Source of the DNA: an uncultured Planctomycetales bacterium
Lineage (GTDB): Bacteria; Omnitrophota; Gorgyraeia; Aquiviventales; Aquiviventaceae
Assembly: GCA_964373175.1 (NCBI GenBank)
Contig: CAYJTP010000002.1
Location: forward strand, 40,402 to 104,401
Length of the DNA: 64,000 bases
Direction: 5' to 3'
Every line of letters begins with the position of its first letter. Position 1 is the stretch's first letter. Below the pieces are notes generated by a model. That model had not been told where the DNA came from and searched no databases. It worked only from the letters and a program-made list of their open reading frames with translations. Shown in pieces: positions 12,001 to 63,282 of this stretch. The position numbers and the translations under genes are program-made.

Positions 12001-15000
12001 GCGACTCAGAAGCCCAAGTCCAGCGAGCCACCCTTGACTACTTTAAGACCAGACGAGACATCCTCGTCGCGACGCGCCGGGTTCTCGATGCGAACAATCC
12101 AAACCTCATCACCGGACAGGAGTGGCTTTCCCAGCTCGACGAGCTCGAGCGAACGCTCCAGCTTCAGGATGGTGTCTTGGTCTTCAGCTTGGAGGGAGTC
12201 CTGGTGCCCTACACCCCGCAGCGCAAAGCTCGACTGGTTGACAGTCCTGTCTATCCAGAATTCATGGCGCTCCTCCGCAACGGGTTCCGGATCGTGGTCA
12301 ATGCGGGACACAGCCTTGAGAACGTGCTCCCTCAGATTCTGGATGGCCTGCCCGAGGCTGATAAACCGCTGCTGAGGAACCTGACCATCTATTTCAACCG
12401 CGGCACGGCGAAAGTGACGTTCAGGTCCTCTGGTGAACCAATCTTCGTTGAGTCCTATGCAAAGACGCTCTCGGATACCGACATCCCTAGGCTGCACAAT
12501 ATTCTCACAGAGCGCGTCAACGAGTATTGGAACTGGGTCCTGGAGGATCGTGATCGGTTCGAGCGGATGTTCCCGCGGTTCAGGCTCACCGATCCGCCGA
12601 GTCCGCCGAGGACTGAGTATCGTACATGGCAACCCTCTGCGTCGCAAGACCAAAACATGGGATTGTACAAAATGATGTTGTACCAATGGGGGTTGAAAGC
12701 AATGCCCTCTATTCCCCACGTGACACAAATCACGATTCTCCCATTCCCGTCCATAGAACTCGAAGGCGTTCCGGGAGCGACCGATTGGAGAAAAGCGTTC
12801 TTAACGCGTCTCCTCGAGGACCTCAAGGCTCAGGCTCCGGACTTATTGGAGCGTTACGATTTTATCCCTGGCGGGATCTATTCCATTGATATCGTCCGGA
12901 AAGGGGTGGGTAAAGATACACCGCTCAAAGAGGCCACGGCAGGTGTTGATCCTGGACATGTCCTGGTGGTCGCGAACACGGATCTGCATGGAGAAGGGGA
13001 AGGGGATTTGCCCTTGGGAACCCTTTCCTATCTCCAGCCCTACTCCGTGGGGGACATCAGCGATCTCCCGAAGGGATTCCGCACAGCTGGAATGGGGCTC
13101 TTTGCGACAAAACAGCTTATGCGCGAGGTCCTCAAAAACTATGACTATGCGAAGGCCCATCCGGAGCGTCCACCAACGAATGCGATCGGCACGGTGAAAG
13201 AATTCCTCCGCAAGCGACAACAGGCGATTTATGACATGTCGTGGTCCCCGACGATTGAAGGAGCGGTCCAGCAGTTCAACGCGTGGAGGAACCAACAGGC
13301 GACCCAAGGGAAGTCACCGAGCCGGGAGGACCAAGAAGACTATGTTCGGGGACTCTTTCAGACCTATCAACTCAATCGACTGAAGGGGTCGCCCTGGACG
13401 GACCTTTACGCACGAACACTTGCAGAACGCATGCACGCACAGACAGCCATCCGCACCCTCTTAAAAGAGCTCACCGCGGTCGATAAAGCGGAGCAATTCT
13501 ATGCACTGGTCGACGCAATTGACCAGCGCATGGGACTACGGAACGAACTGAGCAGCCAAGATTTCTGGGAGTACTACAAAGCAGTCGATCCCCGTGTGAT
13601 CCTAGCCCTCCGACGCCTCAAACAGATCACCGGATACGATGAGCATCGGCTTCGGGACGAGGTGATTCGCGAGGTCGCAGCATCTGAGAGGTCTCTGGGG
13701 CATGCGTTGAGTGTGCCACGGGTTTTGGTGAGCTACGCGGGTGATCGGATGGTCTTTCCGGCGATCAAAGCAAGCCCTCACAAGCCGCATGTATCTCCGA
13801 GCCAATACATGTATGTCGGTGGCGGGGGACCGGCGGCATCGTTCCTCATCCAAGGATGGATCCATCAAGCTCGCCAACGTGGAGAGCTGGCTCCAAACGA
13901 GCACGTGACAGATGTCACACTCGATCGCACCAAGCTGGGGCCTGCGGTCATGACGGTGGCCACGATCACGACCACCTTTGATGATGGGGGAGACTCGAGG
14001 AATTTCCTGCTTGGCTTTCTCGAAACCCCTCCCTATGAGACCTACTTCCTCCCGCCGGGAGACATCTCCGTCATGCTGGGCTTTGCGACGGATGATCCTG
14101 CGAAGCTCTGGTTTCTGCACTATGCCGACAAGAAAGAAGGACGGATCAGCGGTCGTGCAATTGCTCCGATCTGGCTCAAACGCCTCAAGATGATTCATGA
14201 AAAAATTGAGAATGGCCTATTGCCCCGTCCACCGGATTGGCTGGCCTTCGTCAACGCCGCGATGACGCTGGGTGATCTGTTGGATCGCGAGCTGGTGGAG
14301 CGGAACGTGGTGCATCCATCTCGATCGGAAGCGCCTCCAGCTCAAGCACGAGGGAGGGAGCTTCTGTTCAAAGACGGCAGCAGCCAGAATTTCTTCACGG
14401 AGGCTGCTGCGGGCTTAGACACCGGGGCGCTGATCCCTGGCGATGAACACCTGATCCGCGGGTTGTTCGATCCCTCGCGCTTGGATATCGACCATCTCAA
14501 GACTCTGCTGGGCATCCGCGATGCCCACGTCTACCCGGTGAGCCCCGATGAAGCTACGCTCGTGGCCCTTGATGAACAGGGCCACACGGTGGATCAAGAC
14601 ATGCACGTGACCCTTGGGGGCCGTATCTATCCAGTCCACCCTGCCGAGGAACAGACCGGCATTAGTGACAAGGCGCATGTTGGACGAATCCACCAGGTCA
14701 TCTTTCGAAAGCGGGTACCTAAAAAAGAGGAGAAAACGAACGTCATTTCTTATTCCTATCGCCAATTGAGACCTGAAGAGATACCAAAAGCGACCAAGGA
14801 GGAACTAGAGGGTATTGCGCGAGTTCTACAGGTGATTGTCTCCGGGCTGGGGAGTTCCTTCACGAGCATTCTTCCTGACCTGATGGTCCAAGGGGTGGTG
14901 GAGGCGATCATGGAGCGGCAAGACATCCCCCGCATCTATGTCGCCAAGATCAAGAAAGACCTCGAGACCTCCCAGCTTGATGTAATCGGGAAGACCTTGC

Positions 15001-18000
15001 GGGCGATCCCGCTCCGTGAGCAAATCGCCGTGATGGAACGATCCCTCGAAGGCGCACTGGGCAAGCCGGTCCGGTTTGAGCGGCTCTTCAGCCATGTAGT
15101 CCTTCCCCGTCTTTCGCAGAAAACCATTGACCGGCTGGCTGAGCTGGACAAGCTCACGGACCTTGAGGTCGAAAAGCTGCTCGAAGGGGGACCCCAGATC
15201 AGCAAGTATGTTCGAGGAGCCCAACTCATCAGCCAGGAAGACCTCGAGTTCCTCCAATCCCGCGGGATTCAAATTGTCTGGGTTGACGAATCGGACATTG
15301 AACTGCTCGGTGAGAAGAGGCGAGATGCGTGGTATCTGGGACTCGCCTTGAAGGCGTTACAGACAAAGACACCTCTCGAAAATGAGGATCAGCTGCTCTC
15401 CGTAGCCGACAAGACGAAAATTGTCGTTGAACACTCGACAGGTCAGGTCTTCGTGGATGGGAAAGAAGTGACCAAGGCACTTGGGGACCGAAAGGTTACC
15501 GAAGCAGCTCAGGTGGTTTCTCGCCACCCGAAGGTCCGTCACTACGTCAATCAACACTTGTTGGCTGAGGGAACGCTCACGGAGATTGAAGCGTTGGTCG
15601 ACCACATGGACCAGAAACCTCCCTACTATAAGACGCAGCCCCTCCTCAGGACGATCGATGAGATTGTCGCGTCGTACAGACCTTCCCAGCAGGCTGATAT
15701 CATCACGATTGACGGCCCTGCGGGAACCGGCAAGAGCACGGTAGCGCGCAAACTCGCTAAGCGCTTGGGTTGGCGCTACCTCGATAGCGGGGCGCTGTAT
15801 CGAGCGCTCACCCTCAAGGCGTTGGAGGAAAAGATTAAGTTGGATGATGAGATAGGGCTGTCCGACCTGGCCTGGGAAACCCAGATTGAACTCTCCGGAG
15901 ATCAGGTCTTGTTGGATGGAAAGGACGTGACAAAGGCGATTCGGAGTCAACAGGTGACCAGGGCCGTCTCGCTGGTTGCGCAACATCCAGGGGTCCGGCA
16001 ATACATCACCTGGCTGCAGCGCCGCCTGGCCAGGTCGGGAAAGACGATCTTAGAGGGCCGAGATACCGGAACCGTGGTGATGCCGGGAGCGATGCATAAG
16101 GTCTATCTCGATGCGCCGCTCAACGTACGTGCCGAGCGGCGTCAACAGGAACTCGCTTCCCGAAAGATCACGTCCAGGCTCGAGAAGGTCCGTCAGGGCA
16201 TCGAGAAGCGCGATCAGCGTGATCAGGGACGCGCGATCGCGCCACTGCGTCCTGCGCCAGGGGCCCACCTCATTGACACGGATCAGATGACCAGTGACCA
16301 GGTGGTTGACCAGATTCTCGCTGGAAAAGGAGCCGCCTACGGAGCCCTCCTGATCGATGCTGATGTGACCCTGCTACGCTCGGCCGATAAGACAGAGACG
16401 TTGAGCACCAGCCCGGCCCGAGACGCCTTGCTCAAGGTGCTTCAGCAGGGGGTGCGCGTGGCGATCATGACAGGCAACAGTGCGACACAAGCCCTGGCCC
16501 GCCTGATCGAGACCCCCGCACAGGGAGAGCAGCCAGCTCTCGTCCACATCCCACCGGAACTTCGTCACCTGGTCACTGTATACGCCAACGGGGGCTTACA
16601 GAAATTCACCTTTGACCAGGCTGGCGTTCCGCACGAAGAGGAAGCGTACCGGTCGGGGAAAGAGATTCCAGCGACCGATCGACAACGGATCCTTAAATCC
16701 ATCCAGCCGCTGCTAGACTGGTATCGCAACCGCGTTCAGAGTCTGGGTGGGCGGTTTATTAACGCACAACCCGACTTCCTCCTCCAAGGCAGAACCCTTA
16801 GGATTCCTGAGATCGTTCTCGAAGGAGAAACATCGGGTGAAGGGGTGCTGAAAATTGCCCTGATGTTCCTTTCCGCTCATCGGGCCATGGAGCTGAAAGA
16901 CTCCAAAGCCCCTGAGACCTTTCCGGATCTCCGGCAGGAGTTCCTTGAGAAGCTGTTGGCCATGCTGCCAGATGACCTGAAGGGCCGCTACAGCTTTAGC
17001 GAAGGTGGTCTCAGCAGCATCGATATCAAGCGCAAGGGGCTGGATAAATTGGTGGATGTCCGAGACTACTTGACCTCAACCAACCTTGCGCCTGAAGATG
17101 CCATCTACTTCGGAGATGAAGTCTATCCGGGAGGAAACGACTACCCTGTGACGACGATTCCAGGGCTGTTGGTGATTGGAGTCAATCCCGATCAGTCGAC
17201 CGTCGCAACTCCCGCCATCCCGGGTGGCGCAGGTGTCATGGGGACCACGTGGTGGTTAGAGAACCTTGATCAGTTGATTACCTTTCATCCCACGAGGAAG
17301 AAGTTGGTCAATCACCCGATCGCGCCCACGCCGATTCAACACCTACGTCTCCAAGCACAAGGACCGTGGCGGGAGCGAGAGACGTCGGCAGGCGTCGCCC
17401 GCGAACTCCTCACCTCTGTGGATGGGGGTCGTCTCATCGCCACGACCTATTCGCTCACTGAGCACTCAGCGCGCGATCAGGAGGCGCCTCAAGTCGCAAA
17501 AGGCCCCAACCAACTTGCGAGAAATGTGCTGGTGGATGGGGTCGTATTTCCCCTGGTCAATGACCAAGGCTGGACTCTTGATACCGCGTTAGCCCAGGAC
17601 CTGACCTCAGAGCAGCAGCCGCTCCTCCATCCAGCTGAGGCGGCCAAGGGTGCTCCCGGGACACGCTTCATCCTCAATCTCCTTTACTACCTCACGGTGC
17701 GGCTGTATGAACGGTATAACCAACTCCGGAAAGATCGACCGGCCGAGCAGCTGACTCGCCAAAACTTCTATCTCGATCACTACAAACCCTTGCACGGTGA
17801 GGAACGGTTCCCCTTGTACAACAAGGGCTATGTTGGCATCGGTAAGGACGGTAAGCTCATCTTCGGCCAGCGAACGCTCCTTGGAGGCAAGCTCTGGTTC
17901 GGTTCGCGGGAGCTGTCCTGGACCGAGCGAGATATCAACCCCACTGCTTGGAGCTTAGCCGGTCATCCGGTCATCGTTTACACGCCGAGTTACGCCGATG

Positions 18001-21000
18001 CCGCTTCGTCTTTCACTTCGCAGGTCACCGGCAAGCCCGGTGATCCCAATTTCAGCGTCACTGTCGGGCGAGCACGGTACAACCTCCTCGTCATCGATAA
18101 CCGCATCGAAGCGGTGATCCACGGGGAGGTATTCCTGCCCTATGTGGGGGTGGTGCTCTCGGTTGATCAAGCGACCTTCGATCGGGTGTTCCGTGATCAG
18201 GTGGAGCAGGTGGATGTTCAAGGGGAACGCCGCGAGGTCTACCGCCCACGCGTCAGCTATCGCTTCCAGCTCGATCCGCCGAAAGCGTTTGAAGGTGATT
18301 GGAGCCACGTGCAGTGGCTGATGGGAGGCGGGTACCTGTTGGTCGCGCACGGCGAGAACCTCGTGGCCACACCAGAAAAGACGCAGGAGAGCCTGAGAGC
18401 TCAGGGCTGGCTCAACCCACTGTCACGCCAGTCACTGGAAACGCCACTGGACGTGCGTGGTCCTGAGCAACGAGATCCTACCGTGGTGATCGGCCAGACG
18501 AAAGATGGGCAACTGTTCGTGGTCACCTTCAGCGGACGGACCATCCACAGCAGCGGCGTGACCTTCCCTGAGGCCGTGCGCATTCTTGAGGAAGAGTTTG
18601 GCGCTGGGAATCTCGAGTGGGTCTTGAATCTCGATAGCGGATCCTCAGTGTCCTTGGGTGCGGTGGATGAAGAGGGTCGCTACCATCTCCTGAATTATCC
18701 TGGACCAGGTCCTGATACCTTGGCGGGAGAGGTGAGGCCGGTCAATAGTCTCGGGTTCATCACGACCCGCCAAGTTCCCAGACGTCTTGGGCAACTTCAG
18801 ACACTCGCCCATACCGCCGCGCCCTTCCAGCCCATTACGGAATGGAACCAGACATTTGAGAAGTTCAGGCCTGGCGATCCCGGGACCGACACAGTCACCG
18901 TCGGGCTTGATCTGGGTTCAGGGAGAGGCCGACACCTCTTCCAGATCACGGTGCCGAGAACCGACGATCCTCCCGTCCAAGCCGCGATCATCCGCTACCT
19001 GGCGATCCAGATCTATAACCGCTTGGGAACGTTTGGTCCTGAGCGGGTGTTGATCGATGCGCCTGAGGCGCTCTACAACCAACTTGTCGCCTTCTTAGCG
19101 CAAGGCGGCTCAGCGACCTCGTTTGGACGCATCCAGGCGTATCTAGCCCTAGTGAACCAGAAGCCGTTTACCATCCTGCCAGCCGATCGCACGACCATCG
19201 AGGCGCTCCCGGCTGAGCCTGTCGGTCTGGCTGTGCCGGATATCAATCCGCGCCGAGGCCAGGTCGTAGCGATTGACATCGGAGGGACCGATGTCAAAGT
19301 GGTCGCCATGCAGGACGGTGTAGTGGTCTATCAGCACACAGCAAACTGGGTTCCCGAGCAGTTCACCGACCCTGAGCAACACGTTGAACTCCTTGAGCGT
19401 TTGATCCGACAGGCCCAAGCAGAGGGCAAGCTCCCAGCATTGGATGCCATTGGCATCAGCTGGAACTCAGCTGTGCGCGACGGCCGCATTGCGGCTTCCA
19501 CCAAGGCGACCAAGGGATTGACCGAGGAGCAGTTCCGCAACGTGATCAGTCCGATCCGCGAGCGCTTTGAACGCGACTTCAAGATTCCTGTGGCTATCGC
19601 GAATGACGGGGATGCTGGGGCGCTGTGGGCAGCGGTAGAGCTTGGCGTGAACAATGCGCTGGCCCTCAGCATGGGAACCAACCTCGCCTCTGGCTATGTG
19701 GACCCCCAGGGGGACCTTGCTCCCTACTTGACCGAGATGACCAACGTCATCATCGACCTTGGGACAGAAGCCGCTCCCCATTCCTTTACGAAGGTCCCAG
19801 GGGTCTCGCAGCAATACCTGTCTCAACAACCTGCGTTCCGCTTGGCGCGTCAAGCTGGCATCAGCCTCGATGCGATGGCGCATGACGCGGCTCGGTTAGA
19901 GTACGTGCAATCGCTCCTTGACCAGAACGACCCACAGGCCGTTTCGATTTTCAAACAGATCGGTCGATACTTAGCGACGCACATCGCAGAGACCCAGCAG
20001 TACCTTGGAATGACCAACGTCATCCTCTTTGGTCGTGTGGTGCGCGGTCGTGCTGGTAACCTGATTGTGGAGGAAGCCCAACGCGTCCTGCGGGACATGG
20101 ACCCGGTCCTGGCTGATGCGGTGACCATCCGCCTTGCGACCGAGGTCCACTATGGGCAGGCGATCGGGGCAGGGTATCTGGCCAGTCGCCATTTCCAGCA
20201 GCTTAATTCCACTGATGAAGTCGAGATTGCCCGTCGGCGATTCGATGAACGGTGGGTAGCAGCTCAACAAAAACAGGCGCGTGGATTTACAGCCGAGGAT
20301 GTGCACAACGCCTACTACGATGCGCAAAGCAAGCAGTGGAAGTCAATCTACGGAATCAGCCCCGTCGTCTGGATAGACCCAGGCCTTATGAAACAAGTCC
20401 AGAGCGCGTTGAAGGCTAAACTCTCACCAGCGCTTCAATCAAAGCTTGTCTGGTTCACTCCATCCACGAGCCACGTCACCATCGCTTACCTTGGGCTTTG
20501 GAGAACGACGCCCCTCGATAAGGAAACAGTTCAAACGTATCAAGCGCTGTCCGACCAAATCATTCCAAAACTCATTCGGAGACCCCTCAGCTTTTCAGCA
20601 GAAGGCGTTGGTATGATGCTAAACGGCGCCCTGTTTGTTCCCATGATTCCCACTGAGGGATCGCTCGCGATCCTCGACCAGGTGGACGCACGCTATCTTG
20701 AAGAGGTTCCTGGTCTCGAACATTTCCCGAGCGTCGTTCCCCATGTAACGCTTGCGTATCTTGTTAGCGAATTAACCCCAGAAGAGATGCAACAGCTACT
20801 CAAGGCCATCGAAGAGCTTCGGGGAATCCAATGGGGAGCCTATCGGGCTGACGAGATCGTGCTCTATGCTTACGATGACTTGTCGCTTGAACGTGGGCGC
20901 GTGTTGAACCGGTACGATCTGACGGCGCCCGCGAGCCAAGCCAAATCCCCAGCGCCGATGGCGATCCTGACGGGTCTCTTGGCTGGACTGTGGCTGGGCC

Positions 21001-24000
21001 TAACTCAGGGCGCTGGGACTGATCTTCCAGCCTGGGCCGACGTAGTCCTGGGTGGCGGTGCCGCGTTCTTCGGACTCTGGACCCTCATAGAGATCGGGAG
21101 ATACATTCGCGGCAAGATCAAGGCTAGCAAGCTAACCGACGAGCAGCTTGAAGCCAACTTCAGGGCATTGGTGGAAACGACCCTCAGCGAAGACTGGGTC
21201 AAGGCGCTTTGCGATAACTGTCTGAAGTCTGCGACCGACCTTCCGGCTCGCCAGAAACTCAAGCCCCTCCAGTCCGCCAAACGGATTGGGACGAACGTCT
21301 ATCTTGATCTGCGACTTGCGGCTTCACCAAAAGAATTCTCTCGGGTAGTCCGCCACGAGTTGACGCATCTCAAGAGCCATCCGGCTCACGCTCCCCCACG
21401 TCTCCTTGGGACCGTCTGGTACTACAGCGTTGGGTACCTCCTCCGAGAGCTCAAAGCCCACCTGGCCGAATTCCGCTGGCCCCATCCTGCCAAGCCTCCT
21501 CAATCAAATCCTCGTACTCTCAGAGCCACTGAGCAATATGCTCGCCTGCCCCAAGAAGATTTTATTAGCCCAAACGAGAAAGCGCTTCCTCACATCGCGG
21601 ATGGCAATGCCCTTGAGCGGTTCGAGCAAGCCCTGAATGCGCCCGGGGCTTTTGAGCGTTTAGGAGTTCCACTTGGTCTCGCCTCGGCCATTGCTCACCG
21701 ACTCCTCACCCGAAGCGAGCAACGCTTGCGCTGGCTATTGGGACAATGGGCGTCATTACCACCGGCCAGGATTTATGAAGTGTTCAAAGACGATCTGCTG
21801 CGGGGTGAGGAAGGGTTGCGGACGTGGATGGATGACCCGGATCCAACCACCGTGGTTGGGGTTGAACGAATCATCCAGAACGTTCTGGAAAGTCAGCCCG
21901 AGGTGATGCGGCGAGGTTTCTTCCTCAAATATAGCACGGCTGAGCGACTCATCCGGCAACACCCGCCAGTTCGGATGATTCAAGAGGTGCTGCAGGACCT
22001 TTCGCCTGAGGCACGGACTGTGGATGAGCTCCTGCGTCGAGTAGATTCCTTGACCGTCAGTAGCGCGGCGCGGTTTAGCGAAGAGCAAGCCTGGCGCGAG
22101 CGCTTTGCGACATTGCTGAACGAGCTGGCGCCTGACGATTTTGAGCACCGCGGTCTGCGGGTTGTCGTTCTTGATCCAAAGGTGTGGGGGAAGGTGGCCG
22201 ACCATCTTCGAGAAGACAAAGCCTACATTCACTACGGCAAACTGGTGGGGATCCTCTTGGGCACTCCTCTGCAGGAGCGTCATCCGTATGCCATTCTTCG
22301 AGGTGTGTTGAAGGTGCTCAGCTACATCAAAGAGGTTGAGCTGTTCAACCGGATGTGGGAAGTCGCGAGCGAGCAGAGCCGCCACGCCCCTGGTTCATTT
22401 GGGCCTCGCATTCGGAAGGCGTTCGCCGGGTATCCGTTATCGGATCAGCCGACGCTCGGACTTGTACTGGAAGGCGCCACACAGCGCTACGTTCACCAGC
22501 AATTGTGGAAACTGGCGCAAGAGATTCCCGCCTTGACCGCCTTGGCCCAAACGTATGACACCTTGCATATGGCGAACCAGGAAGCCGTTAGCCTGAACGC
22601 CTGGACCCATGTCTCTCAAGCCGTCCGAGGACTGCAGCAACCGTTGCTGCGAGAAGCCCGGCAGATCGTCCTCTACAACTTTTTCGCGAAATTCTTAGGT
22701 TCTGATCACCAGCTCGATCAGTGGATTGTCGAGCACACGGGGGTTGATGAGACGCTGCCGACCACCACGACCGTGAAGGCAGTTCCCAACTACCCCTTGA
22801 CCGCCTCGACTGTGAGCGGCTGGCAAATGCCTCTTGTTCACCCCTCGCGCCAGGGGGCGATGACCATTGATCTTGACCCTGATGTCCCGGTTCCTGATGC
22901 CGGAACGCAACTACTGATCCAAGCGGTTGATACGTGGCTGCGACGGCAGGGGCCGAAGGCCAAAGACGCCTCGCTGCTTGGGATCGCGGCCATGGCTGGG
23001 ACGGTCCCCAAACTGTTTGCCGACGACGTCTCGCGAGTCGTCGTGATCGCACGCAACCCCTACGCCATGGCGCTGACCCGAAAGAACTCGGCTGACAAAC
23101 CTAACGTGACCGTTCTGGTTGGAAACCTCTTTGAGGCGCTGAGAAGCGTTGACCCCGCGACTCGACAGGAGCGGCGAGAGCAGTTCGACTTGATCGTCGG
23201 GCAGGTCCCTACTGTTCCGACGCCTGTTGATATCCCCATCGATCCCAGCGATCCTGCAGTCCTGTCCTACGAAGGGGGAGGGAAAGGCCGGGAGGTGTTG
23301 GACCGGCTGATCCAGGAAGCCTCCCAGTATCTCAAGCCGGGTGGAACGCTCTTGCTTGTCCAGCCCGAGTACGTCGATGCGGGAAAAGGAGAACACGCTA
23401 TCGAGTTGCTCAAGCAACAGGGTTTCTCCGCCCGCGTCATCCAGAGGGTAGGTACAGAGATTGTTGAGGGATCGTTGCTCTCCAGCCGCCTGGAATGGAT
23501 TCAGCAAGAGTTGGCTTATACGTTTGAGCGAGTCCGACAACCATGGTGGCGAAACGTGCTGTCTCGCTTTCTAGGTGGCCCTCGACCTCACGCGCCGTAC
23601 CTCAATCGCCTCATAGTGATTGAGGCCACCAAACCTTCCCAAGCTGGGTCTCTCACAGATAGGGCAGGGGGATTGCCCATCTTTATGCAATCTGGGTCAT
23701 ACCCACCGTTGCTCCTTGGTGCTGGAAGCATCGGGGGCATTGGGGCGTCAGGTTTCTTCCACGAACCTGTCCTTGCGCTCCTCGGTCTTGGCTTAGACCT
23801 GTTGGGTGGGTTGGTGGCGCTTTTCTGGCCGATCCTCTTTGCGATGACCCTACGAGACGAGAAGACTGAGCAGTTACCCGAGGCCGCGCGGGCGGCTTTT
23901 GCAGAAGCGCTGGACGCGATCGATGTCACGTCCGGCTTGGGCTTGGAGCGGCTGGCGTCGAAGATCCAGACCGAACCGCTGGATGAGATGCTGCGGCGCC

Positions 24001-51000: not shown

Positions 51001-54000
51001 CGTCGCAACAAGACATCAAGCGAGGGCTCATCCGACTGTTGAAGTCGGAACGCGCGACCATACCTCCATCCTGGCCGGGATCCCCTGAGACCCGCAGGGA
51101 GCAACTGGTCGGGCAGATCCTGAGCGCCATCCAGGATCTCACGCGACTTGCCGGTGAAGGAAAGATTCAGCGTTACTCGACGGCTGAACTCGTGGCAGCT
51201 CATGTCAGGAAGATGACCGGTGATCAGACAATTTCCGACCATGAAGTCCGGCAATTGATCGCGCATCGCAAGAACCTCCAAGATGCCATGGGGGTCTTGC
51301 GGAAGAGCACGGAGTCCTTCCACTTCCAGCCAAAGCCGCGTCCGAAGAAGACACCCGGATCGAATCCGCTCAGGGTATTCGCCGCCCCGCTGCTCGTGGC
51401 CATCGGCCTGTGGGTCGGTGGGCTCGAAGGGCACTTGCTGGCCGGGCTGGGCGTTGTGCTCAGCGTGATCGGGTTTGGCGGGCTGCTGCTGGCAATGCGA
51501 CCGGTCAGACAAGAAACAGAATCAGAACTCAAGCCAGGCGAGATTGCGGGAGGCGTCCAGCAGGAGCTTGGCGCGGTCCAAGCATCCAGCCCATCCAAGA
51601 ATCAAGGGGACCTGGTCAGTCTTGACCAACATCGCCCACAGCGGCAGGGGTGGCGAGGTATGCTTGGCATCCAGCAGTTTTCCAGTCACCTTCGCCAAGA
51701 CCGCGTCAATCTCGGCGTCTTTCCCTGGGACGAGGCCACGCAGCGGCAGTTCGCCCAGTCGTTCAGCACGCAACGCGGGCCACAACGAGATGGGGATCAC
51801 CGAGTAGGGAGCGCCCGTATCGATGATGGCCAGATGGTCATCACTCCACCCAACAGACTGTCTGAACTGGACTCGACCCAAGAGTCGAGACAGGAAGAGT
51901 CGACGACGACGGCGGCTGGCCTCGAGGTCCCGCACGCGCTGGACCTCAAGGGCGACGCGCATATACGTGGATTCCGGCCTCGAGGAACAAATGCGGGATA
52001 TGCGGCCAGTCAAGCTGCTGGCGAGCTTTCGCGAGCACCCGGATTAGATGCGGACCAACAGCCAACACTCGCCGGTGCGCAAAGGCGACCCATTGATTCG
52101 GGTAGCGTGTGGCCAATTCGGCATAGTGCGCAAAGGCCCAATCGTACTCCCGCTGAAGAGCCTCTGGAAAGAGCGCTGTTTGAACCGACATCAGTTTCAC
52201 CGACCTCCACCTCGACTATAACCGACGATGAAGAGGCTGTCAAGCCAGACCGCTTCTCCGACCTTATCGGTGGGCTCGAAGGGCACTTGCTGGCAGGGCT
52301 GGGGTTTGTGCTGAGCCTCGTCGGGTTTGGCGGACTGCTGGCGATGCGGAAGATTGGCGGAAAGGAACAGCTAACAGGCAAGGCAAGAAGCGCGAATAGG
52401 CAGAAGACAAGCCGTCAAGGAATGCCGAGTTTTTCTTCCACAACTTTCAAGCGGGCGTCGAAAGTCTTCATCTCGGATCTGATCGCACGGATTTCAACAA
52501 GGATCAGGTCGGCGTCTTTCCGAAGGTTGCCGACGTCTTTCGACAAATTATCCACCTTTGTGCGAAGGTCAACGAGCCCTTCAGCGACGAGGCGGATCTC
52601 ATGGCGAAGCGACTCGATGAGCGCGCCGACTTCGGTCACCGTGAAGGCGTCTTTGGAAGGCCGTTTGGATGGAGGCATGAACGCCATTCTACGCAGGACA
52701 GGAGCACCAGTCAAGGAACATCGGGATGACTCGGTTGCGCCAGGTGGCCTCCTGACCCCGATGGGGGGATTCGTGCTCATAGGGATCGGGCTCCTGGCCA
52801 AGCATCTGATGGGGCTTGCGCTCTTCGGGACGGTGGCGGAAGTGGTGGGCGTTGGGCTGACCGCGCTGTGGGCAGGTTGGAATACGACTCTTCATTCAGC
52901 GTCTCAGGTACTGTCGTGGAGGGTGAGAGCGCTACCGAAAGATCTCATAGCCATCACTGCGCAGCACGAGGACTTTTCCACGCAACCACCGCTCAGGTCT
53001 GATCTTCAACAAGTTCCTGACAGCCTGGGTGATCGTTTCAGCCATGGGTGGGTGGATGCGGATCACGACAATTCCGGACAGCTTCGAGGGCAGGAAATTC
53101 AGGAAGTCCCGGTCACGCGTGAACAGGATCGCGCCTTCCCGTTCGGCAAGCGCAGCGATGGTCGCGTCGGTCGCACGGGGGGACGGACGGATGACGTGAT
53201 GCCCCACCCGGCGCAGGAAGGCTTCCGTCTGTCCAGGGATATGTTCGTCAAGCAGCACACGCACAGCGAGCTACGCCTTGAAGGCCACGAATTCCCGGTG
53301 CTTGAATTGCTCAGCGGCGTACTGCAGGGCGGCGCGAATGTGCTGCGGGGTCAGCTGGGGAAAATATTTCTTGGACGTGATCTCGGTGCTCGAAACCCCG
53401 GCTCCAAGCAGCTCAAGGACATCCGAAACCAGGATGCGAGTCCGCCCAAAGCAGGGTTGGCCATGACAGATGGCTGGGTCCACGTCGATCAGCTTCTCAA
53501 GGGAGTTTTTCATCGCCACCTTCACACTCCTCCTAAGAAGGATAGCATCCTCGCTCCTCGTCGTCAAGGCACGTCTTCTGGAGTACTCAACGTGGGGTTC
53601 AGCGCAGAGACCCTTGCCGGGCGGTGGCCGGAGGGTTCGCCCATCTGGATCGCGCCGGTGGTGGGGCTGCTCGGGTGGGAGTTCCTCGTGGCGGGGTTGA
53701 AGATGGGCGGCCTAGAGGGGGTGGCGCTCGCGGGCTTTGGATTGGCACTTGGCCTCTTCGGGTTTGGCGGGCTGCTGCTGGCGACGCAACGCGGTGGGAG
53801 AGTAAAGGGGAGGGAAGCACGGCTTAGAAGCTACCGGGTTCCCAAAGAGGTGGCCGAGCGTTATGTCACTCCGGAGATCCTGACACTCTTCGAAGTGGCT
53901 GAACAACTTGGACTCAAGATCAAAGCAACCGGCGGGACCGCGCGGGATTTTGCCGTGTCTGTCATGACACAACACCCGCTTCGACTCCCTCGCATCACCA

Positions 54001-57000
54001 ATTTTGATGTGGCGATCCCACTGGCTCCCCATCAGAAGCCCTCAGAATTGTTCAACGAATCAGCCTACCAGAGGTTTGCGCAAGCCTTCGAACAGGCCCT
54101 TCGAGCCCGTGGCGTGCTCAAGCCAAACCAAAAGATGCCTGAGGTGGATTTCATGCCAGGCGTGTATGTGGAAGGAGCCGGCTACATTTACCAGATTAAC
54201 ATGAACATCCGACCCACAAAGGAGCGGCCTGAGATTGGCGAGGCATTTTCGATCAGCAAACTGGCGGTCAAGAAAGAAGGCGACGGGTTTGTGATTGAAG
54301 ATCACGTGGGCGCTATGGCCGACATCAAGGCTAAGCGCCTTCGGATTATCGCCACACCCGGACGGTTACTCACCGAAGGGATGCTGGGGAAGATGTTGGG
54401 TCGATGGGCGGATTACCGGAAGCTGGGATTTGACTTTGACCGGCCATCGAGGCAGCTGATCCAGCAGTCGGTGAACGCGCTCCGGCATACCACACCAGCA
54501 GACCAAAGCACCTTTGTGAGCTTGCTCCTCGACAACAGCCAAACGCAGCAGGATCTTCTCTTCGTGATTGACCAGTATCGATTAGACGAGGTCTTGGGGG
54601 TACGGCGAGCCTCCCTGGCAAGACGATTCAAACGGCATGAGCGCGCGTCGACGGCTTCCTCCGCGGCTCCTGATCCAGTCAAAGCCTTCGTCACACAGTA
54701 CCTGCAAGCCAACTACGGCCAGTTCAACCTGTGGGCCAACACCGAGGCCGTTGTGGATGCGGTGGTGAACCGCCTGTATCCGTCGCGGGATCCAGCAGCG
54801 ATTGAGCAAGCGCGAGAGCAGTCGGGGATTGGCGTTGCGGGAAGTGACTTTACGAGGCGCTATGATGACTATCAACACGATCAGAAACTGGAGCTGACCT
54901 ATGAGCTCATTCGAGAATTTCTTACAGGCGGAGTGGTCGTGGATGTGGGGGCTGGGAAGAATCTGTTGGCGCGGAAGCTGGCTGAAGAAATCCCAGGGAT
55001 CAAGGTGATCGGGACGGATGTCTTGGATTGGCATGAGGAATCGTCCGATCCGAGAGTCGAGTATCGAAAACAACTCACCCCTGAGCGAGTCCCTGTTGAG
55101 GATGAGAGCGCCGACGTCGTGATACTCCAAAGCGTCCTCCACCACATCACGGATGAGCATCTTGACAGTCTCTTGAAGGAGGTCCACCGAATCCTGAAGC
55201 CGGGTGGGAAGGTGCTCGTGTTAGAGAACACCTTCCCGGAGACACCCGAGGTGCTCCAGACCGTGAGGGACCAGGAAGGCTTGTCGGAGTTGAGCAAAGC
55301 CTTCCTGAGCTTAAACCCAGCGCAACAGCAAGCCTTCTTCGAATTTATGGATTGGTATGGCAACGTCTTTGTGAAGCAGCAGTCTGACATGCCCTTGTCC
55401 TTCAATTACAAGTCGATCGAAGCCTGGAAAGCACTGTTTGACCAGCATGGATTGGTGACGCGCACGGATCGGTTCATCGGCTTTACCCCGGGCCGCTTCC
55501 ACTGGCTGGCCACCGGCCTCTTCGTGTTTGAAAAAGTGTCCAGCGAGCCTCCTATCTCATCCATCCTGAAGCGCCATCCGTACTTGAATGAAACGCAACT
55601 GAAGCGTTTCGCGCAAGGCGAAGCCGGGTTTGCGGTCACCCGGAGACTGAGATGGACTTTGGAGAAGCTGGATCAGTTTCTGACCGGTTTGGAGCAGGTG
55701 AGCGGGATCCCCTTGGACAAGGCAGTACAACTCGTTGTGGAACCCGCTGAGATGTATCTGATCAAGCAGGTTCGCGATGAGCGGGCAGGCCAATATCTGA
55801 TCAACCTTGGCAATTCCATGTATCCTCCAGATGTTGTCATCCAAGCGGCTGGGTACGTAGGGACTCATGAAGGCCATCACTACCTTGACGAGCTTAATAT
55901 GGTTGACGCTTCTGGTCTTGCAGAAATGGGGGGTTCTGGTGGCACGACTCGCCGAGGCTCAATCTTGGAGCAGTTTGATCGGATGGTAAGCGACGCGGCT
56001 CGAATGAATCCGATGATGCGTGGGCTAGCAGGTCGTCCAGATCTATTGTGGATGGTGGAAGAGCTCAGCGTTGATAGTGATACGGCTAACACACTCGGTG
56101 CTCGCGTCGTCAAGAACTATCTCCCCCTTGCGGAAGCTCGATTGGCTTATCAGGAACGTCAAGCAGAGAGTCCTCGCGGAGTTGTTCCTGGTCTTGCGGA
56201 GCTCGTCCGGTATGAAACCGTCGCACGGGAATATGCATGGATCGAAGGGGTCGATGGGGCATCCCGCGAACGTCTCAAGCGCGTGGAGGAGGGGTACGCC
56301 AAGTTAGCCAAGAAGGCCAAAGACTACTCGGAGGCCAAATACAAGTTCTTCCTCGGTGTGTTCACAAGCATCTACCGGATGACGAGTTTGCTCAAACCAC
56401 GTGGTGGGCGGTGGCCGAAGCGGCAGCCGTGGTATGACCGCCTGGAAGCGCGCTACGGGTGGTTCGTGGGACAGGTGCTGGCGCCAGCGCTCAGAGAGTC
56501 CGGATTCTTTGTCGGTGGCGGGAGCTTGCTACTCAGTTGGGCCTTTGGGATTCCGCTTGAGCTGAGGCCTCCAACCGTGGCACTGCTAGCTGGATTCCAA
56601 ATCCTGTGGCACCTCCGCCATCTACCGGGTGCCGAAGGCAAGACCTTGGCTCAGAAACTCGCCGCGGCGTTCTCCGCTGAGAAACTCCTCATCACCGGCC
56701 TGACGGTCGCGCTTCCCAGCCTCCTGCTGCTAGATCCCAGCAGCCCATTCCATCCGATCGGCGTCGGCTTCGTGGCACTCATCCTCGGCGTTGCGTCCTT
56801 ACCTCACGCCTTCATCAACCTCGTCACACCTATCCAAGATGGTCGTGTGGTAGGTGTCCGCGACGCGGGATCTGATACCGTCGGCAGGCAGGCGGATGGG
56901 TCTGGTCGCACTTCGCAGGACTCACCGTTGACCATCGTGGAGATGGTGTACGCTGACCTAACCAACACAGGAGGCTTGGAAAGCTACTTGCGGGAGCTTC

Positions 57001-60000
57001 ATCGCGAGCTCCTCACCCACCCAGGGATTCGAATCCATGCGCTGTATCCGGTGCAGGCCGCGCCAAGGACGTTTGAGGAACGCGCTGACAATGGGAGCAC
57101 GCTCGTTCATCACCAGTTTGTGAGACAACGTCCTTGGGTGAAGGTTTCGTGGCGCTCACCGTGGGGCTCCCTTCAGCAGAGTGCGGAGATCTTCCGCAAC
57201 CTCCGTCAGATCATTCGGCAAGAGCAGGTTGGCGTCCTGCATCTCCATACGCCGTTCTATTTCCCCGCGCATCTGGCGTTTTGGTTGGCGGGCGTGTGGT
57301 ATCGCATCCCCCGTGTGGTGACCTCGCACCAGACACACGCAGGGGGCTCGAGATGGTTCTTGCGCACCATCCACCAGCTTGGTGCCAAGGTGCTTCCTCT
57401 TGGCGCGGCGGAAGTCACCGGGGTGAGCGACGCGGCGGCCCGCAGCCTGAAGCGCAAGGCCTCTATCATCGGCAGCGGGATTGACACGCACTTCTTCACC
57501 CCGCAACACGGCCGGGGCGATGCGTTTCGGCAGCGTGAGGGGCTCTCAGCAGAGGTGCCACTGATCGTTTATCCGGCTCGGATCGATCCTGAAAAGGGCC
57601 AGCGGGATCTTTTGGATCTGGCCGAGGCGCTTCGGGCCAACGGCCTCAAGGCTCAGGTCGTCATGATGGGACCAGTCGCTGATCCCTCCTACGTTCAGCT
57701 GCTCAGCGACGACATCATCGCGCGGGACCTGTCAGAGATCGTCCACATCTTGCCCGCTGGGACTCCTGAAGAGGTGCGCGACGGCTACGCGGCTGCCACC
57801 GCGGTGGTGTTTCCTACCTATTCGGAGGCGTTGGGCCTTGTGGCGTTGGAAGCCAGCGCGATGGAAAAACCGGTTGTGGCCTACGCGACAGAAGGCGCGC
57901 GGGAAGCGGTGAAGGATGGCGAGACCGGCTACCTGGTCCCGACCGGCGATGTCGAGGCGCTTAGCCGTCACGTGATTCAACTCTTACAGGATGAGCCACT
58001 TCGTCAACAGGTGGGTCGTGCGGGTCGGGCTTTTGTGGAAGCCCGCTATTCGCTTGAGCAGTTAGCCAATCGACATCTTGCGCTGTACCGACGTGTGGCC
58101 GGCCGCGACGCGGACGCGGTATCTGATACCGTTACTGAACTGACGTCGCAAGCGATTCGCGCGGGTCTTGAGCGGCTCATTCGGGAAGGGAAGGGACTAC
58201 TTGTTGCCAAACCTCAGAAGGGCCCAATTACACAGTGCTACCTGGACTGGGGAGGGACGTTGAGCAATCTGACGCCGGAAGAACGGCGCGCGGCGCTTGA
58301 GCTGTTTCGCGCGCGCGGGATTGAGGTCAACATTCTCACCACGGCCAGCCCCGAGGCGATCGCCAGGCAGCTTGAAGCGGAAGGCAACCTGCCCTTCTTG
58401 CGCTCCATCATTCACGCCATGGGCAGCTCCTCAGGGAAGGTCCACGTCGCCCGCTATCAGGACTCAACCGGCCAAGACACTCCCATCGTCCTGGTCCACT
58501 CGCCTACGACCAAGGCCGGCTACTTGAATTCGCTCCCTGGACAGGGCCGCGTCCTGTTTGTCGATGATCAGGCGACGCATTTTTACATCACCTCAGGACA
58601 GGTCATCCGCGTCGGCGTGATCGGCAAGGGCGTCACGAGGTTAAATGACCTGCTCGGCGAGGACACGGAGTTGGCGGAGTATTACCTGGCGTCCCTCAGC
58701 GACCGTTCCTCCCTTGATGAGTTGCTCACCGCGGTATCTGATGCCGTATTGAGACCAGAGACCAGCCCGCCCCCCCGGCCCGACGCCGGCGACAGCCGGG
58801 GCGGGCGGCGGATGCTTTCGGCGGGCCGGGGAGACCAGCCCGCCCCGGCGGATGCTTTCGGCGGGCCGGGGAGACCAGAGACTCGAGTGGGCATGACTGA
58901 CAACGAGGTCATGAACGGATCGGTGAGTTACTCCGACAATCGCTTGCACAGGGCTCTTGAGCGGCGGGCCGACAAGCTCGCGCGGCTCTTTGGCAATCTC
59001 GAGTACCAGCTCATCGAAGACCTCAACCCAATCACGATGGATCATCGGCTGCCGCGCGAGTTTGCGCGGGTGAAGCTGCCGCTCTTGGCGATGCTCGTGG
59101 CCGACCACCTCATACCGAGCCACCGGACGTCACCGAAAGAGACGCTGCGTGGAGAACTGCGCGAATTCATGATGCCCGATGGGGTGACGCTGCGCGGCCA
59201 GTGGTTCAAAGTTGAAGGAGATGGCCCTGCCCCCGTGGTCGTGTTCATCCCGCCCTGGGGGATGTCGAGCAGCCAGTACGAGTCGCTCGTCGACACCTAT
59301 CGCCAAGAGGCCAACGTCCATGTGCTGCTGCTCAACCTGCGCGGGCAGGGCTTGAGTGAGGGGGAACTCACGACGCATGGCGCGGAGGACGTCGATGACG
59401 TGCAGCGCGTGCTGCAGATGCTGCGCGCCAGCCAGGAAGTCAGCACCCAGCCGATCCTCCTCCATGGCACGTCGCTTGGCGCGCTCGTCTCTCTGCGGCT
59501 TAAGACCCTGTTTCCTGAGCTCATCCAAGGCGTCTTGGCTGAATCGTGCCCGCCCATCCAGGCGCACGCCATTCAGCGGTTCTTGCAAACACAACTGCAA
59601 GACCGCTACGGCAAGGTCTTGCAACAGCTCTATCCCGAGGTCGCACGCCAGGATCCTGATTTCTCGAACTTGGCGAGCGAGACCGTACCGCTCCTTGAGC
59701 GGGTGTTAAGCCATCGCCTCGGGCGCTCCATTCACCTCATGCGGCCCATCGATGACCTCAAGACGGCGCAGGGGCCGATCACCTTCCTGTACGGTCGCGG
59801 TGATCACGTGATCCCGGCGAATGAGCAGTTGGACATAGCTCGTGCGGTGAAAGAGCGCCTCGATGCTGGTGAGGGCATCCAACTCTATCGGCTCGACGGC
59901 GGCCACCTGGCGATGAGCAACGATCCGCAGTACGCCACGGTGATCTCATCCGTTGTCCGTGAGGTCATGGTTCAGGCTTCGTCCAATGTCTTCGAGCAGA

Positions 60001-63113: not shown

Positions 63114-63169
63114 GGGGTCAGACCCTGTGCGGGAATTTTGTCAGTTTTCGTGCGAAGGGTCTGACCCTG
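63114..63169. repeat. REP-like palindromic element ~50 nt after the giant ORF stop
   Basis: The arms gggtcagaccc (63115-63125) and gggtctgaccc (63158-63168) form a stem of about 12 bp with a ~30-nt loop. No U-tract follows. It is the same family as 36423-36480, in the opposite orientation. Confidence 0.75.
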
Positions 63170-63253
63170 AGCACGCTCACGGCAGGGGAACAGGGAAAGA
63201 GGGGACTGTCAAGAGTCTTCCAGGGCTCTCTTAGTACAAGATAAAAAAAGCAC

Positions 63254-63282
63254 TTGACAAGCTTTTTGAAAGATATTATTAT
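63254..63282 (+). promoter_or_regulatory. Sigma70-like promoter for the downstream gene
   Basis: TTGACA (63254-63259), a 17-nt spacer, then TATTAT (63277-63282), within an AT-rich patch. Confidence 0.55.

Follow-up and report, generated by a model that had tools for sequence, protein, structure and literature searches.

The 64,000-nt stretch of DNA analyzed here, hereafter the window (positions 40,402 to 104,401 of contig CAYJTP010000002.1, assembly GCA_964373175.1, from an uncultured bacterium placed by GTDB in the Omnitrophota), is occupied almost entirely by one plus-strand open reading frame (ORF). It represents the 3′ 63 kb of a giant gene of the Omnitrophota ‘Archaeovorin’ or multi-enzyme class, an already described kind. 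A first-pass annotation had read the frame as a mosaic of whole enzymes fused between hydrophobic anchors, and a frame scan, Pfam, NCBIfam and Protein Data Bank (PDB) searches and hydropathy analysis confirmed this architecture. On balance, we lean slightly towards its product being a single polytopic inner-membrane megaprotein, a membrane-tethered assembly with a glycan synthase core. In addition, an island of opposite-strand genes embedded in the frame bears the marks of selection for keeping that frame open and free of cysteine.

The giant frame and its end

Frame +3 is free of stops from nt 3 to a TAG at 63063-63065, amounting to 21,020 codons, whereas the other two plus-strand frames contain 724 and 873 stops (~3.5-4%). 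An open run of this length cannot be due to chance. As no stop lies upstream within the window, the gene begins before the window and the frame comprises at least 21,020 codons. Its GC content by codon position (0.65/0.42/0.67) follows a coding-like pattern and is homogeneous at third positions (GC3, 0.67 ± 0.06), on which basis we rejected a recent foreign origin of individual modules. A variant genetic code was also rejected, because TGA, TAA and TAG are all absent from the giant frame and all frequent out of frame. Misassembled concatenation, a concern raised in the first-pass annotation, is unlikely given the unbroken frame, the homogeneous GC3 and the collinearity of the first third with independent assemblies.

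The gene terminates properly, its stop being followed by an 11-nt inverted repeat, a promoter-like site and a new gene that starts near 63361, encodes a signal peptide (MGKSKTGRLGIW...) and runs off the window end. Sigma-70-like promoter motifs are strongly depleted on both strands within the giant ORF (window positions 1-40000), with 1 versus 6.7 ± 2.8 and 2 versus 5.8 ± 2.1 expected. Scans for Rfam families, tRNAs and tandem repeats over the whole window were empty, and a word-indexed search of 5.8 billion proteins with the C-terminal 1,020 aa returned no homolog. The frame as a whole is delimited as follows:

3-63065, plus strand: giant ORF, from the first in-frame codon of the window to the stop at 63063-63065, 5′ end missing
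60090-63062, plus strand: C-terminal region with ~7 hydrophobic segments and no detectable homolog
63115-63282, plus strand: gene end, with inverted repeat GGGTCAGACCC/GGGTCTGACCC at 63115-63167, then a promoter-like site (11/12) at 63254-63282

A synthase-like core shared with Omnitrophota giants

An exhaustive search with aa 2501-3700, a stretch rich in transmembrane helices and devoid of recognized domains, yielded 72 representative homologs. The best of these were partial giant proteins from metagenome-assembled genomes of Candidatus Omnitrophota, with 45% identity over 1,056 aa. Several Omnitrophota homologs fill a whole short contig, and some are named after an internal module (‘CofD family protein, partial’ or ‘ROK family protein, partial’). 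Local BLAST resolved three collinear blocks, A (aa ~1700-2290), B (~2400-2910) and C (~3130-3520), followed by the modules HAD1-CofD, HAD2 and ROK. The blocks are delimited in the window as follows:

5070-6902, plus strand: block A, Rhs/YD-repeat-type, almost all-beta region (aa 1690-2300), collinear with relatives
7188-8732, plus strand: block B, three hydrophobic helices (aa 2396-2910), conserved in relatives
9360-11066, plus strand: block C, processive GT2/GT48-like synthase, with the glycosyltransferase (GT) domain at aa ~3130-3340 and a transmembrane helix bundle to aa 3688

For block A, the AlphaFold2 (AF2) model is almost all-beta (predicted local distance difference test (pLDDT) score of 81), which fits the long beta structures reported for Omnitrophota giants. 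Its best Foldseek matches were shells of Rhs and Tc toxins (E = 2.6e-8) at a TM-score of only ~0.12, so that the similarity is local.

Block C is predicted, from its likeness in sequence and modelled fold, to be a membrane-embedded processive polysaccharide synthase of the GT2/GT48 type. Searched alone it did not reach Pfam thresholds. In the 17-sequence family alignment, however, 6 of 17 members hit Glucan_synthase (best 7e-17) and 9 of 17 hit Glyco_trans_2_3, and the family profile matched FKS1/GSC2 and BcsA in the PDB at E ~1e-13. The AF2 model (pLDDT 77, predicted template modelling score 0.74) retrieved only membrane-integrated processive synthases among its top 49 Foldseek matches in the PDB (cellulose, hyaluronan, chitin and beta-1,3-glucan), with TM-scores to BcsA of 0.45-0.55. 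A catalytic motif, NSEDTAGG, lies at nt 9810, and residues D59 and E153-D154 of the alignment are invariant. At the Q(Q/R)xRW site, which reads QSVEKVHFLGRSFVLRF, the Q is kept and RW is not evident.

The order A-B-C-HAD/CofD-ROK is common to relatives, among them complete proteins of 6,278 aa and the giant open frames of two related loci (L001 and L002). The core was found again in three loci of species-representative genomes, in open frames filling 16 kb, 16.8 kb and 3.3 kb. The HAD, CofD/YvcK-like and ROK modules recur after the synthase core in the same order in most relatives, with the ROK and HAD-CofD units swapped in L002. One relative (P0153) additionally has a cytidylate kinase (Cmk) and a HemK-like methyltransferase. 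CofD and ROK are only ~60 residues apart in L001, where the segment comprising a Cmk fragment, Cmk, HAD2 and a phosphodiester glycosidase-like module (NAGPA) is absent; this segment is therefore specific to the lineage of the window. From these comparisons, the N-terminal third is best described as an old, conserved architecture with some module shuffling and not as a recent fusion. For the C-terminal two-thirds, almost no relatives were found. Peptide-pattern scans found no close relatives in genome contigs (Cmk region) or metagenome contigs (aa 1-400), a metagenome scan with the block C alignment found nothing, and block C alone returned a single homolog in the word-indexed search.

Enzyme and regulatory modules after the core

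Modules were sought with Pfam on 27 overlapping 1000-aa tiles and with NCBIfam and PDB sequence searches. Recognizable modules cover ~40% of nt 12170-59950, the span to which the first-pass annotation referred, and the remainder matches nothing in Pfam or in PDB sequence searches. For ten tiles devoid of matches, a relaxed Pfam threshold (E ≤ 1) brought no further domains, and PDB sequence searches with aa 1-5000 and aa 7001-10000 gave no match.

The modules had been described as full length, which held for some of them. Cmk, transaldolase, the GT4 glycosyltransferase and the alpha/beta-hydrolase match over nearly their full length in profile or PDB sequence searches. In the acyl-CoA dehydrogenase, this applies to the N- and C-terminal domains; the middle domain, which contains an insertion of ~70 aa, is partly matched. 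Matches are partial or weaker for ROK (profile positions 2-132/294), CofD (104-228/290), NAGPA (56-156/169), HAD, HATPase_c_2, two REC domains, helix-turn-helix (HTH) repeats and TPR, as they are for methyltransferases, with five Pfam sites plus a sixth, HemK-like one in NCBIfam only (four above cut-offs). Inspection of the sequence showed intact catalytic motifs in Cmk, HAD2, ROK, acyl-CoA dehydrogenase, GT4 and the alpha/beta-hydrolase. From 5′ to 3′, the modules are:

12195-13172, plus strand: HAD-like module 1 (HAD1), degenerate, with internal similarity to HAD2; kept in L001, L002 and P0126, a further relative
13950-15302, plus strand: CofD/YvcK-like module (Pfam CofD 1e-14, TIGR01826), conserved in relatives
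15324-15593, plus strand: degenerate partial Cmk copy without P-loop, 43% identical to intact Cmk aa 5264-5352
15699-16322, plus strand: cytidylate kinase, full length (Pfam Cytidylate_kin 265 bits, profile 1-206/211), P-loop GPAGTGKST
16341-17285, plus strand: HAD-IIB-like module 2 (HAD2), DADVT motif intact (Pfam, NCBIfam, relatives, motif reading)
18291-18710, plus strand: NAGPA (phosphodiester glycosidase)-like module (Pfam 3.4e-10)
18825-20300, plus strand: ROK-like sugar kinase (Pfam ROK 9e-10), 33-37% identical to the same module in relatives
20472-20876, plus strand: 2H phosphoesterase (2_5_RNA_ligase2)-like module (Pfam 3.2e-5, under gathering score)
22860-23453, plus strand: HemK/PrmC-like methyltransferase (NCBIfam 7.6e-17), found in relative P0153 too
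28362-31367, plus strand: regulatory stretch with methyltransferase (28362-28751), HATPase_c_2 (29700-30086), methyltransferase (30318-30671) and weak REC (31014-31367)
33609-35312, plus strand: REC (33609-33884, 61 bits) and degenerate methyltransferase (35013-35312), from Pfam and PDB searches
37131-38114, plus strand: five tandem HTH repeats of ~67 aa each (Pfam HTH_23 1e-16), mutual identity 43-55%
40320-41582, plus strand: acyl-CoA dehydrogenase (Pfam, PDB), catalytic YEGTNEIQ kept
42798-43937, plus strand: transaldolase/fructose-6-phosphate aldolase family (Pfam TAL_FSA 1.3e-32, profile 4-281/285)
45090-50702, plus strand: TPR block (45090-45767) and TPR-like repeat blocks (47220-50702), each flanked by hydrophobic segments
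54891-55277, plus strand: methyltransferase (Pfam Methyltransf_11 2.8e-13)
56970-58076, plus strand: GT4 glycosyltransferase, full length, EX7E present (Glyco_transf_4 2-168/170; Glycos_transf_1 5-171/172, 118 bits)
59214-59927, plus strand: alpha/beta-hydrolase with GTSLG nucleophile elbow (Abhydrolase_6, profile 1-211/217)

Cmk passes the NCBIfam equivalog TIGR00017 (249 bits versus a cut-off of 135.6, profile 4-214/217) and is the only module to pass an equivalog. Its 120 best database matches, among which the absence of a self-hit shows that this protein is not in the collection, are all free-standing Cmks of 215-275 aa with 44-53% identity; the module could be an independent capture or the housekeeping Cmk of the cell. 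The Cmk module of another giant (P0153) is only 31% identical to it, as compared with the 44-53% of free-standing Cmks. Just 5′ of the intact Cmk, the P-loop-less fragment at 15324-15593 is nearer to it than to any free-standing Cmk and is an internal partial duplication, decayed yet still in frame.

Further departures from canonical sequences were seen in HAD1, in which motif I reads SLEGV in place of DxDxT and the DxD motif is lost, and in the ROK-like module, which has DIGGT and no Cys-based zinc motif. For the transaldolase, the claim that its N-terminal region is included was borne out by a PDB alignment with residues 5-339 of the 352-residue Neisseria enzyme. The module retains the Schiff-base Lys and has Gln in the position of the catalytic Glu (VSIQVSP, 43092-43112, aa 14364-14370), as in fructose-6-phosphate aldolase. 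PDB matches of GT4 include PimB, GlgM and MshA.

Contrary to the earlier view that the modules have no obvious shared pathway, part of the mosaic appears to share a sugar/glycan theme, namely the synthase core, the recurring HAD, CofD and ROK modules, NAGPA, GT4 and the TPR blocks bracketed by transmembrane segments. That view still applies to Cmk, acyl-CoA dehydrogenase, transaldolase and the regulatory modules, which remain outside one pathway.

Several additional observations concern the less characterized parts of the chain. The HTH repeats at 37131-38114 are of transposase type and would place a putative DNA-binding array among the membrane clusters of the megaprotein. Module hints from motifs alone, unaccompanied by Pfam matches, comprise a nucleotidyltransferase (GSRGDIDVML; 24378, aa 8126), a metallophosphatase (GDVIGRG; 31680, aa 10560), a P-loop kinase (AIDGPSAGRKNT; 44031, aa 14677) and a CCA/poly(A)-polymerase-like head (GGTARDF; 53931, aa 17977).

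Membrane anchors and topology

Kyte-Doolittle hydropathy and charge-free runs, a crude method, revealed ~45 hydrophobic segments along the giant chain and reproduced the previously listed hydrophobic clusters almost position for position. Because strong hydrophobic segments are missing from aa 3690-6980 (a stretch with two weak ones below threshold, at ~4941 and ~6868), the seven modules HAD1, CofD, Cmk, HAD2, NAGPA, ROK and 2H probably share one compartment. The regulatory modules, the dehydrogenase with the transaldolase, and GT4 with the hydrolase are distributed over similar long soluble stretches. Nearly every stretch has an enzyme needing ATP, S-adenosylmethionine (SAM), a nucleoside diphosphate (NDP)-sugar or flavin adenine dinucleotide (FAD), and the stretches would therefore be cytoplasmic in the simplest model.

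Duplications were noted for an anchor with its flank (38424-38528 versus 39153-39257, aa 12808-12842 and 13051-13085, 66% identity) and for a TPR-like block (aa 15740-15899 versus 16310-16467, 51% identity). Anchors and scaffolds seem to multiply through internal duplication.

An antisense island and selection on the giant frame

Cysteine is almost absent from the giant, at 9 of 21,020 residues (0.04%; aa 7070, 7073, 8875, 8878, 9502, 10128, 14941, 19412 and 19849), four of which form two CxxC pairs. TGT/TGC codons number 9 in the giant frame, as compared with 600-800 in each other frame. The relatives are also cysteine poor (0.31% overall), with several proteins of >5,000 aa containing 0-2 cysteines and L001 containing 0.69%.

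At 51.5-53.6 kb, the giant frame runs through five intact ORFs on the opposite strand, three of which pass Pfam thresholds. In part of this island (nt 51,753-52,650), codon-position GC is abnormal and the giant-frame translation is of low complexity, rich in Arg, Ser, Gly and Pro. The island contains the following features:

53271-53567, minus strand: DUF433 (COG2442) antitoxin-type gene, intact (Pfam 66.7 bits, cut-off 23.6, E = 1.6e-18, profile 1-56/56)
52932-53264, minus strand: DUF5615 PIN-like toxin-type gene, intact (Pfam 51 bits, cut-off 23.8, E = 1.5e-13, profile 1-106/110)
52415-52801, minus strand: coiled-coil ORF with the second-highest codon-usage score of alternative-frame ORFs inside the giant, no family match
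51946-52200, minus strand: DUF5678 gene (Pfam 26.2 bits versus cut-off 23.2) with the highest codon-usage score
51522-52013, minus strand: retropepsin-like aspartyl protease ORF, motif IIDTGAP (weak Pfam matches, RVP 0.012 and Asp_protease_2 0.099)
53567 to 53539, minus strand: promoter-like site for the DUF433 gene
52714 to 52686, minus strand: promoter-like site for the coiled-coil ORF
52243 to 52215, minus strand: promoter-like site (11/12) for the DUF5678 gene
51415-51488, 52267-52340 and 53704-53777, plus strand: three repeat copies of 74-85 nt encoding the anchor GGLEGHLLAGLGxVLSxxGFGGLL

The only strong promoter-like sites in the giant ORF are these minus-strand sites just upstream of three island ORFs. 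When 193 alternative-frame ORFs of ≥70 aa in the window were ranked by codon usage, the top four inside the giant were island ORFs, with scores already negative below rank 5; eight control ORFs had no Pfam match at E ≤ 0.1. A 324-aa minus-strand ORF at 7029-8003 was rejected as a real gene, as it matches no family and does not rank among the 30 best codon-usage scores; almost certainly, it only shadows the giant frame.

In the island, the silent sites of the antisense genes reflect the giant frame. When synonymous codons of the five minus-strand genes were resampled with the giant's own codon usage, ~7.7 stops were expected in the giant frame and none is present (joint probability ~2e-4). Similarly, 7.7 Cys codons were expected versus none observed, a value reached in 0 of 3000 resamples. 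In three codon-aligned antisense genes (374 codons), the five codons that would place a stop or Cys in the giant frame (TTA, CTA, TCA, ACA and GCA) are missing altogether (12.6 expected), whereas every 374-codon window of the giant frame has at least 4 and an ordinary downstream gene has 5 in 239. A general bias against A-ending codons as the cause was rejected, since harmless A-ending codons are normal in the same three genes (34 versus 41 expected; Fisher p = 1.2e-4).

Silent sites adjusted, in genes that themselves remain intact, so that the giant frame stays open and lacks cysteine argue for end-to-end translation. Without translation of the giant frame across the island, such constraint on both strands would be difficult to account for. 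Cysteine avoidance is, thus, a selected property of the chain, because the silent sites of the island genes also avoid Cys codons in the giant frame. A broader proposition, in which we place appreciable but less than even confidence, is that giant ORFs of this lineage are translated end to end, with the whole frame selected against stops and cysteine, and grow by absorbing DNA that includes working antisense cassettes; the 2.1-kb island would then be a kilobase-scale dual-coding region.

The DUF433 and DUF5615 genes are a predicted type II toxin-antitoxin pair, the antitoxin gene first, separated by 6 nt on the same strand and both above Pfam gathering scores. PIN-COG2442 (DUF433) is a recognized VapBC-type pair (Makarova et al. 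2009, PMC2701414; Synechocystis vapBC10, PMC3834315), with which the nested pair (53567-52932, minus strand) shares the families, their order, the tight spacing and an own promoter-like site. Unlike those pairs, it lies wholly inside and antisense to a far larger ORF and has constrained synonymous sites. Exact look-ups of the nested toxin and antitoxin proteins found no record, and no nested antisense genes stood out in the related loci L001-L003 (36 kb).

Both island halves are flanked by the ~85-nt direct repeats (89% and 66% identity), one copy of which has an in-frame 3-nt deletion. The repeat may represent an anchor that was duplicated or a site of recombination. An integron cassette array was rejected, as the repeats are not hairpins and fold no better than shuffles (z −1.2 to +1.0).

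These data also bear on the proposal that operons were turned into coding sequence. It does not describe the N-terminal module set, which is old and conserved, and it agrees with the absence of the Cmk/HAD2/NAGPA segment from L001 and with an ORF that reads through antisense genes with promoter-like sites. The read-through thus lends the proposal partial support, in that the frame has taken in DNA with a separate identity, one that this DNA retains today.

Competing explanations

In the membrane-tethered assembly towards which we lean, the Rhs-like beta region would be N-terminal and probably outside the cell, followed by the membrane-embedded processive GT2/GT48-type synthase. After this core, long soluble stretches would be stapled to the membrane by hydrophobic hairpins and carry enzymes with cytoplasmic substrates (Cmk, ROK-like kinase, HAD, CofD/YvcK-like, GT4, methyltransferases, acyl-CoA dehydrogenase and transaldolase), as well as the regulatory REC, HATPase and HTH modules. 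The TPR blocks, bracketed by membrane segments, would lie on the opposite, outward face. Sugar-handling and glycan-modifying enzymes would thereby be held beside a glycan synthase and exporter, and further modules would have been added in the lineage of the window, some having since decayed. Such a protein would resemble a synthase-dependent exopolysaccharide system condensed into a single polypeptide that later acquired unrelated modules.

Several findings weigh against this model. More than half of the giant chain has no recognizable domain, and no obvious function in glycan synthesis can be assigned to Cmk, acyl-CoA dehydrogenase or transaldolase. The annotation of NAGPA family members is that of phosphodiester glycosidases, which may be active outside the cytoplasm, and the module here nonetheless shares one stretch with kinases. 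Several single hydrophobic segments break parity, so that ATP- and SAM-dependent modules would fall on opposite faces if all segments span the membrane. The near-absence of cysteine would equally be expected of an exported protein. In terms of affiliation, two related loci are labeled Planctomycetales/Planctomycetia and one protein Dehalococcoidales, the GC content of the window is 58% versus 36-47% in the relatives fetched, and neither SecA_DEAD nor a C39/S8 peptidase was detected by Pfam in the window, upstream of which the N-terminus of the gene lies.

The first-pass annotation had offered a scaffold or a polyprotein, the same two readings that are discussed in the literature for Omnitrophota giants. 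As a polyprotein, the giant precursor would be cut during or after translation into many enzymes and membrane proteins, co-expressed at fixed stoichiometry. Cleavage via N-terminal C39/S8 peptidase domains has been proposed by West-Roberts et al., and the literature calls the intactness of such proteins unclear. Some junctions are very tight, with only ~10 residues between the end of Cmk and motif I of HAD2, as between adjacent genes. HExxH motifs are enriched as well (5 versus 0.8 ± 0.9 expected; aa 2029, 3991, 7118, 12040 and 18622, nt 6087, 11973, 21354, 36120 and 55866), the one at aa 7118 lying 45 residues after a CxxC pair. We rejected these sites as embedded zinc proteases, however, because the Glu is not conserved in a relative at the only site that could be compared and the sites are mutually dissimilar. 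For the giant frame in the window, Pfam, NCBIfam and relaxed Pfam tiles revealed no protease domain, and no recurrent junction motif was seen in the chain. Chain-wide selection against cysteine, including in the island translation, would also be hard, although not impossible, to explain if the pieces were quickly discarded. We regard a polyprotein as unlikely.

A surface-exposed or secreted predatory effector, with most of the chain outside the cell attaching to prey and digesting or remodelling prey walls, is the published interpretation of Omnitrophota giants. Here it would accommodate the Rhs-like N-terminal region, the TPR blocks, the NAGPA module and the scarcity of cysteine, a trait of many exported bacterial proteins. 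However, Cmk, ROK, HATPase, REC, HTH, the methyltransferases, the FAD dehydrogenase and the NDP-sugar-dependent GT4 need cytoplasmic cofactors or partners, and among the Pfam matches of the giant frame in the window we found no glycoside hydrolase, peptidase, dockerin or lectin domain. To our knowledge, the GT domain is cytoplasmic in all solved homologs of the synthase class (BcsA, HAS and FKS1), which likewise counts against an effector of this type, and we consider it distinctly improbable. More improbable again, to the point of being a marginal concern, is that the frame does not constitute a single functional gene. Under this reading it would be open by chance, through faulty assembly or as the decaying product of gene fusion, and expression would proceed from separate units, divided for instance at 51.5-53.6 kb. 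The opposite-strand genes with their own promoter-like sites, a weak plus-strand promoter-like site at 53521-53548, the low-complexity island translation with its abnormal codon-position GC and the degeneracy of some modules would suit such a scenario. It is countered by the 21,020 stop-free codons of homogeneous GC3, the collinearity of the first third with independent assemblies, the specific purging of stops and Cys codons from the island in the giant frame and the depletion of promoter-like sites elsewhere in the ORF.

Relation to published giants and other systems

West-Roberts et al. 2023 (bioRxiv 10.1101/2023.11.21.568195) described Omnitrophota giants of up to 85,804 aa, ‘giant’ denoting >30,000 aa, with many transmembrane helices, glycosyltransferases, methyltransferases, TPR repeats and glycolytic enzymes, and discussed both membrane association and cleavage into several products. 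The type protein ‘Archaeovorin’ (39,678 aa) is from Velamenicoccus archaeovorus. Nielsen & Lui 2026 (bioRxiv 10.64898/2026.06.07.730766) cataloged 916 Omnitrophota proteins of ≥10,000 aa and defined a Class 1 ‘multi-enzyme metabolic cluster’ with recurrent methyltransferase, HATPase_c, HAD, GT group 1, REC and ROK domains. SecA_DEAD and an N-terminal C39 or S8 peptidase occur in most published giants, not in all.

The gene in the window combines an ORF of ≥10,000 aa, spread transmembrane helices, many enzyme and regulatory Pfams and homology to Omnitrophota giants. With Archaeovorin-type proteins it shares one ORF tens of thousands of codons long, many transmembrane helices, glycosyltransferases, methyltransferases, TPR, sugar-metabolism enzymes and large unannotated regions including long beta structures. 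It differs in that the 21,020 residues in the window, which lack the N-terminus, are without HEAT repeats, GT5, NUDIX, glycoside hydrolase, SecA_DEAD and C39/S8 domains. Like Class 1 proteins, it has many distinct Pfams with none dominating, the same recurrent families and a few percent of residues in transmembrane helices. The text of West-Roberts et al. is silent on a GT2/GT48-type core, Cmk, transaldolase, the depletion of cysteine and any nesting of antisense genes, and that of Nielsen & Lui has no glucan/cellulose-synthase-like core, Cmk, transaldolase, cysteine avoidance or opposite-strand genes in giants.

Synthase-dependent exopolysaccharide systems (Bcs, Pga, Alg and hyaluronan synthase) resemble the proposed assembly in their inner-membrane processive GT2 synthase that translocates the polymer, outer-face TPR scaffolds, accessory modifying enzymes and receiver-type regulatory inputs. 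In contrast to the segments of one chain seen here, their components are separate operon proteins; moreover, no PilZ or c-di-GMP module was found in the window, and QxxRW is not clearly conserved. Normally separate enzymes also occur in one polypeptide in AROM, CAD, fatty-acid synthase, polyketide synthases and nonribosomal peptide synthetases, but those are soluble, catalyze consecutive steps of one pathway and often have carrier domains. The giant has no carrier domains, dozens of membrane anchors and modules from unrelated pathways, some of them decayed.

The synthase core, the cysteine avoidance common to several relatives and the dual-coding island appear to be new details for this class of proteins. 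Together with the recurring sugar-handling modules, the synthase core points to glycan synthesis and export as a role of Omnitrophota giants, and not only to prey-wall degradation. Whether these giants are translated end to end, and what they do, is an open question in the literature, and the island makes translation directly testable. It provides sequence-level evidence that the frame is selected as a translated one even where its product is meaningless, and it specifies peptides and transcripts to seek. If end-to-end translation holds, the island would be a natural experiment showing that ribosomes read the giant frame.

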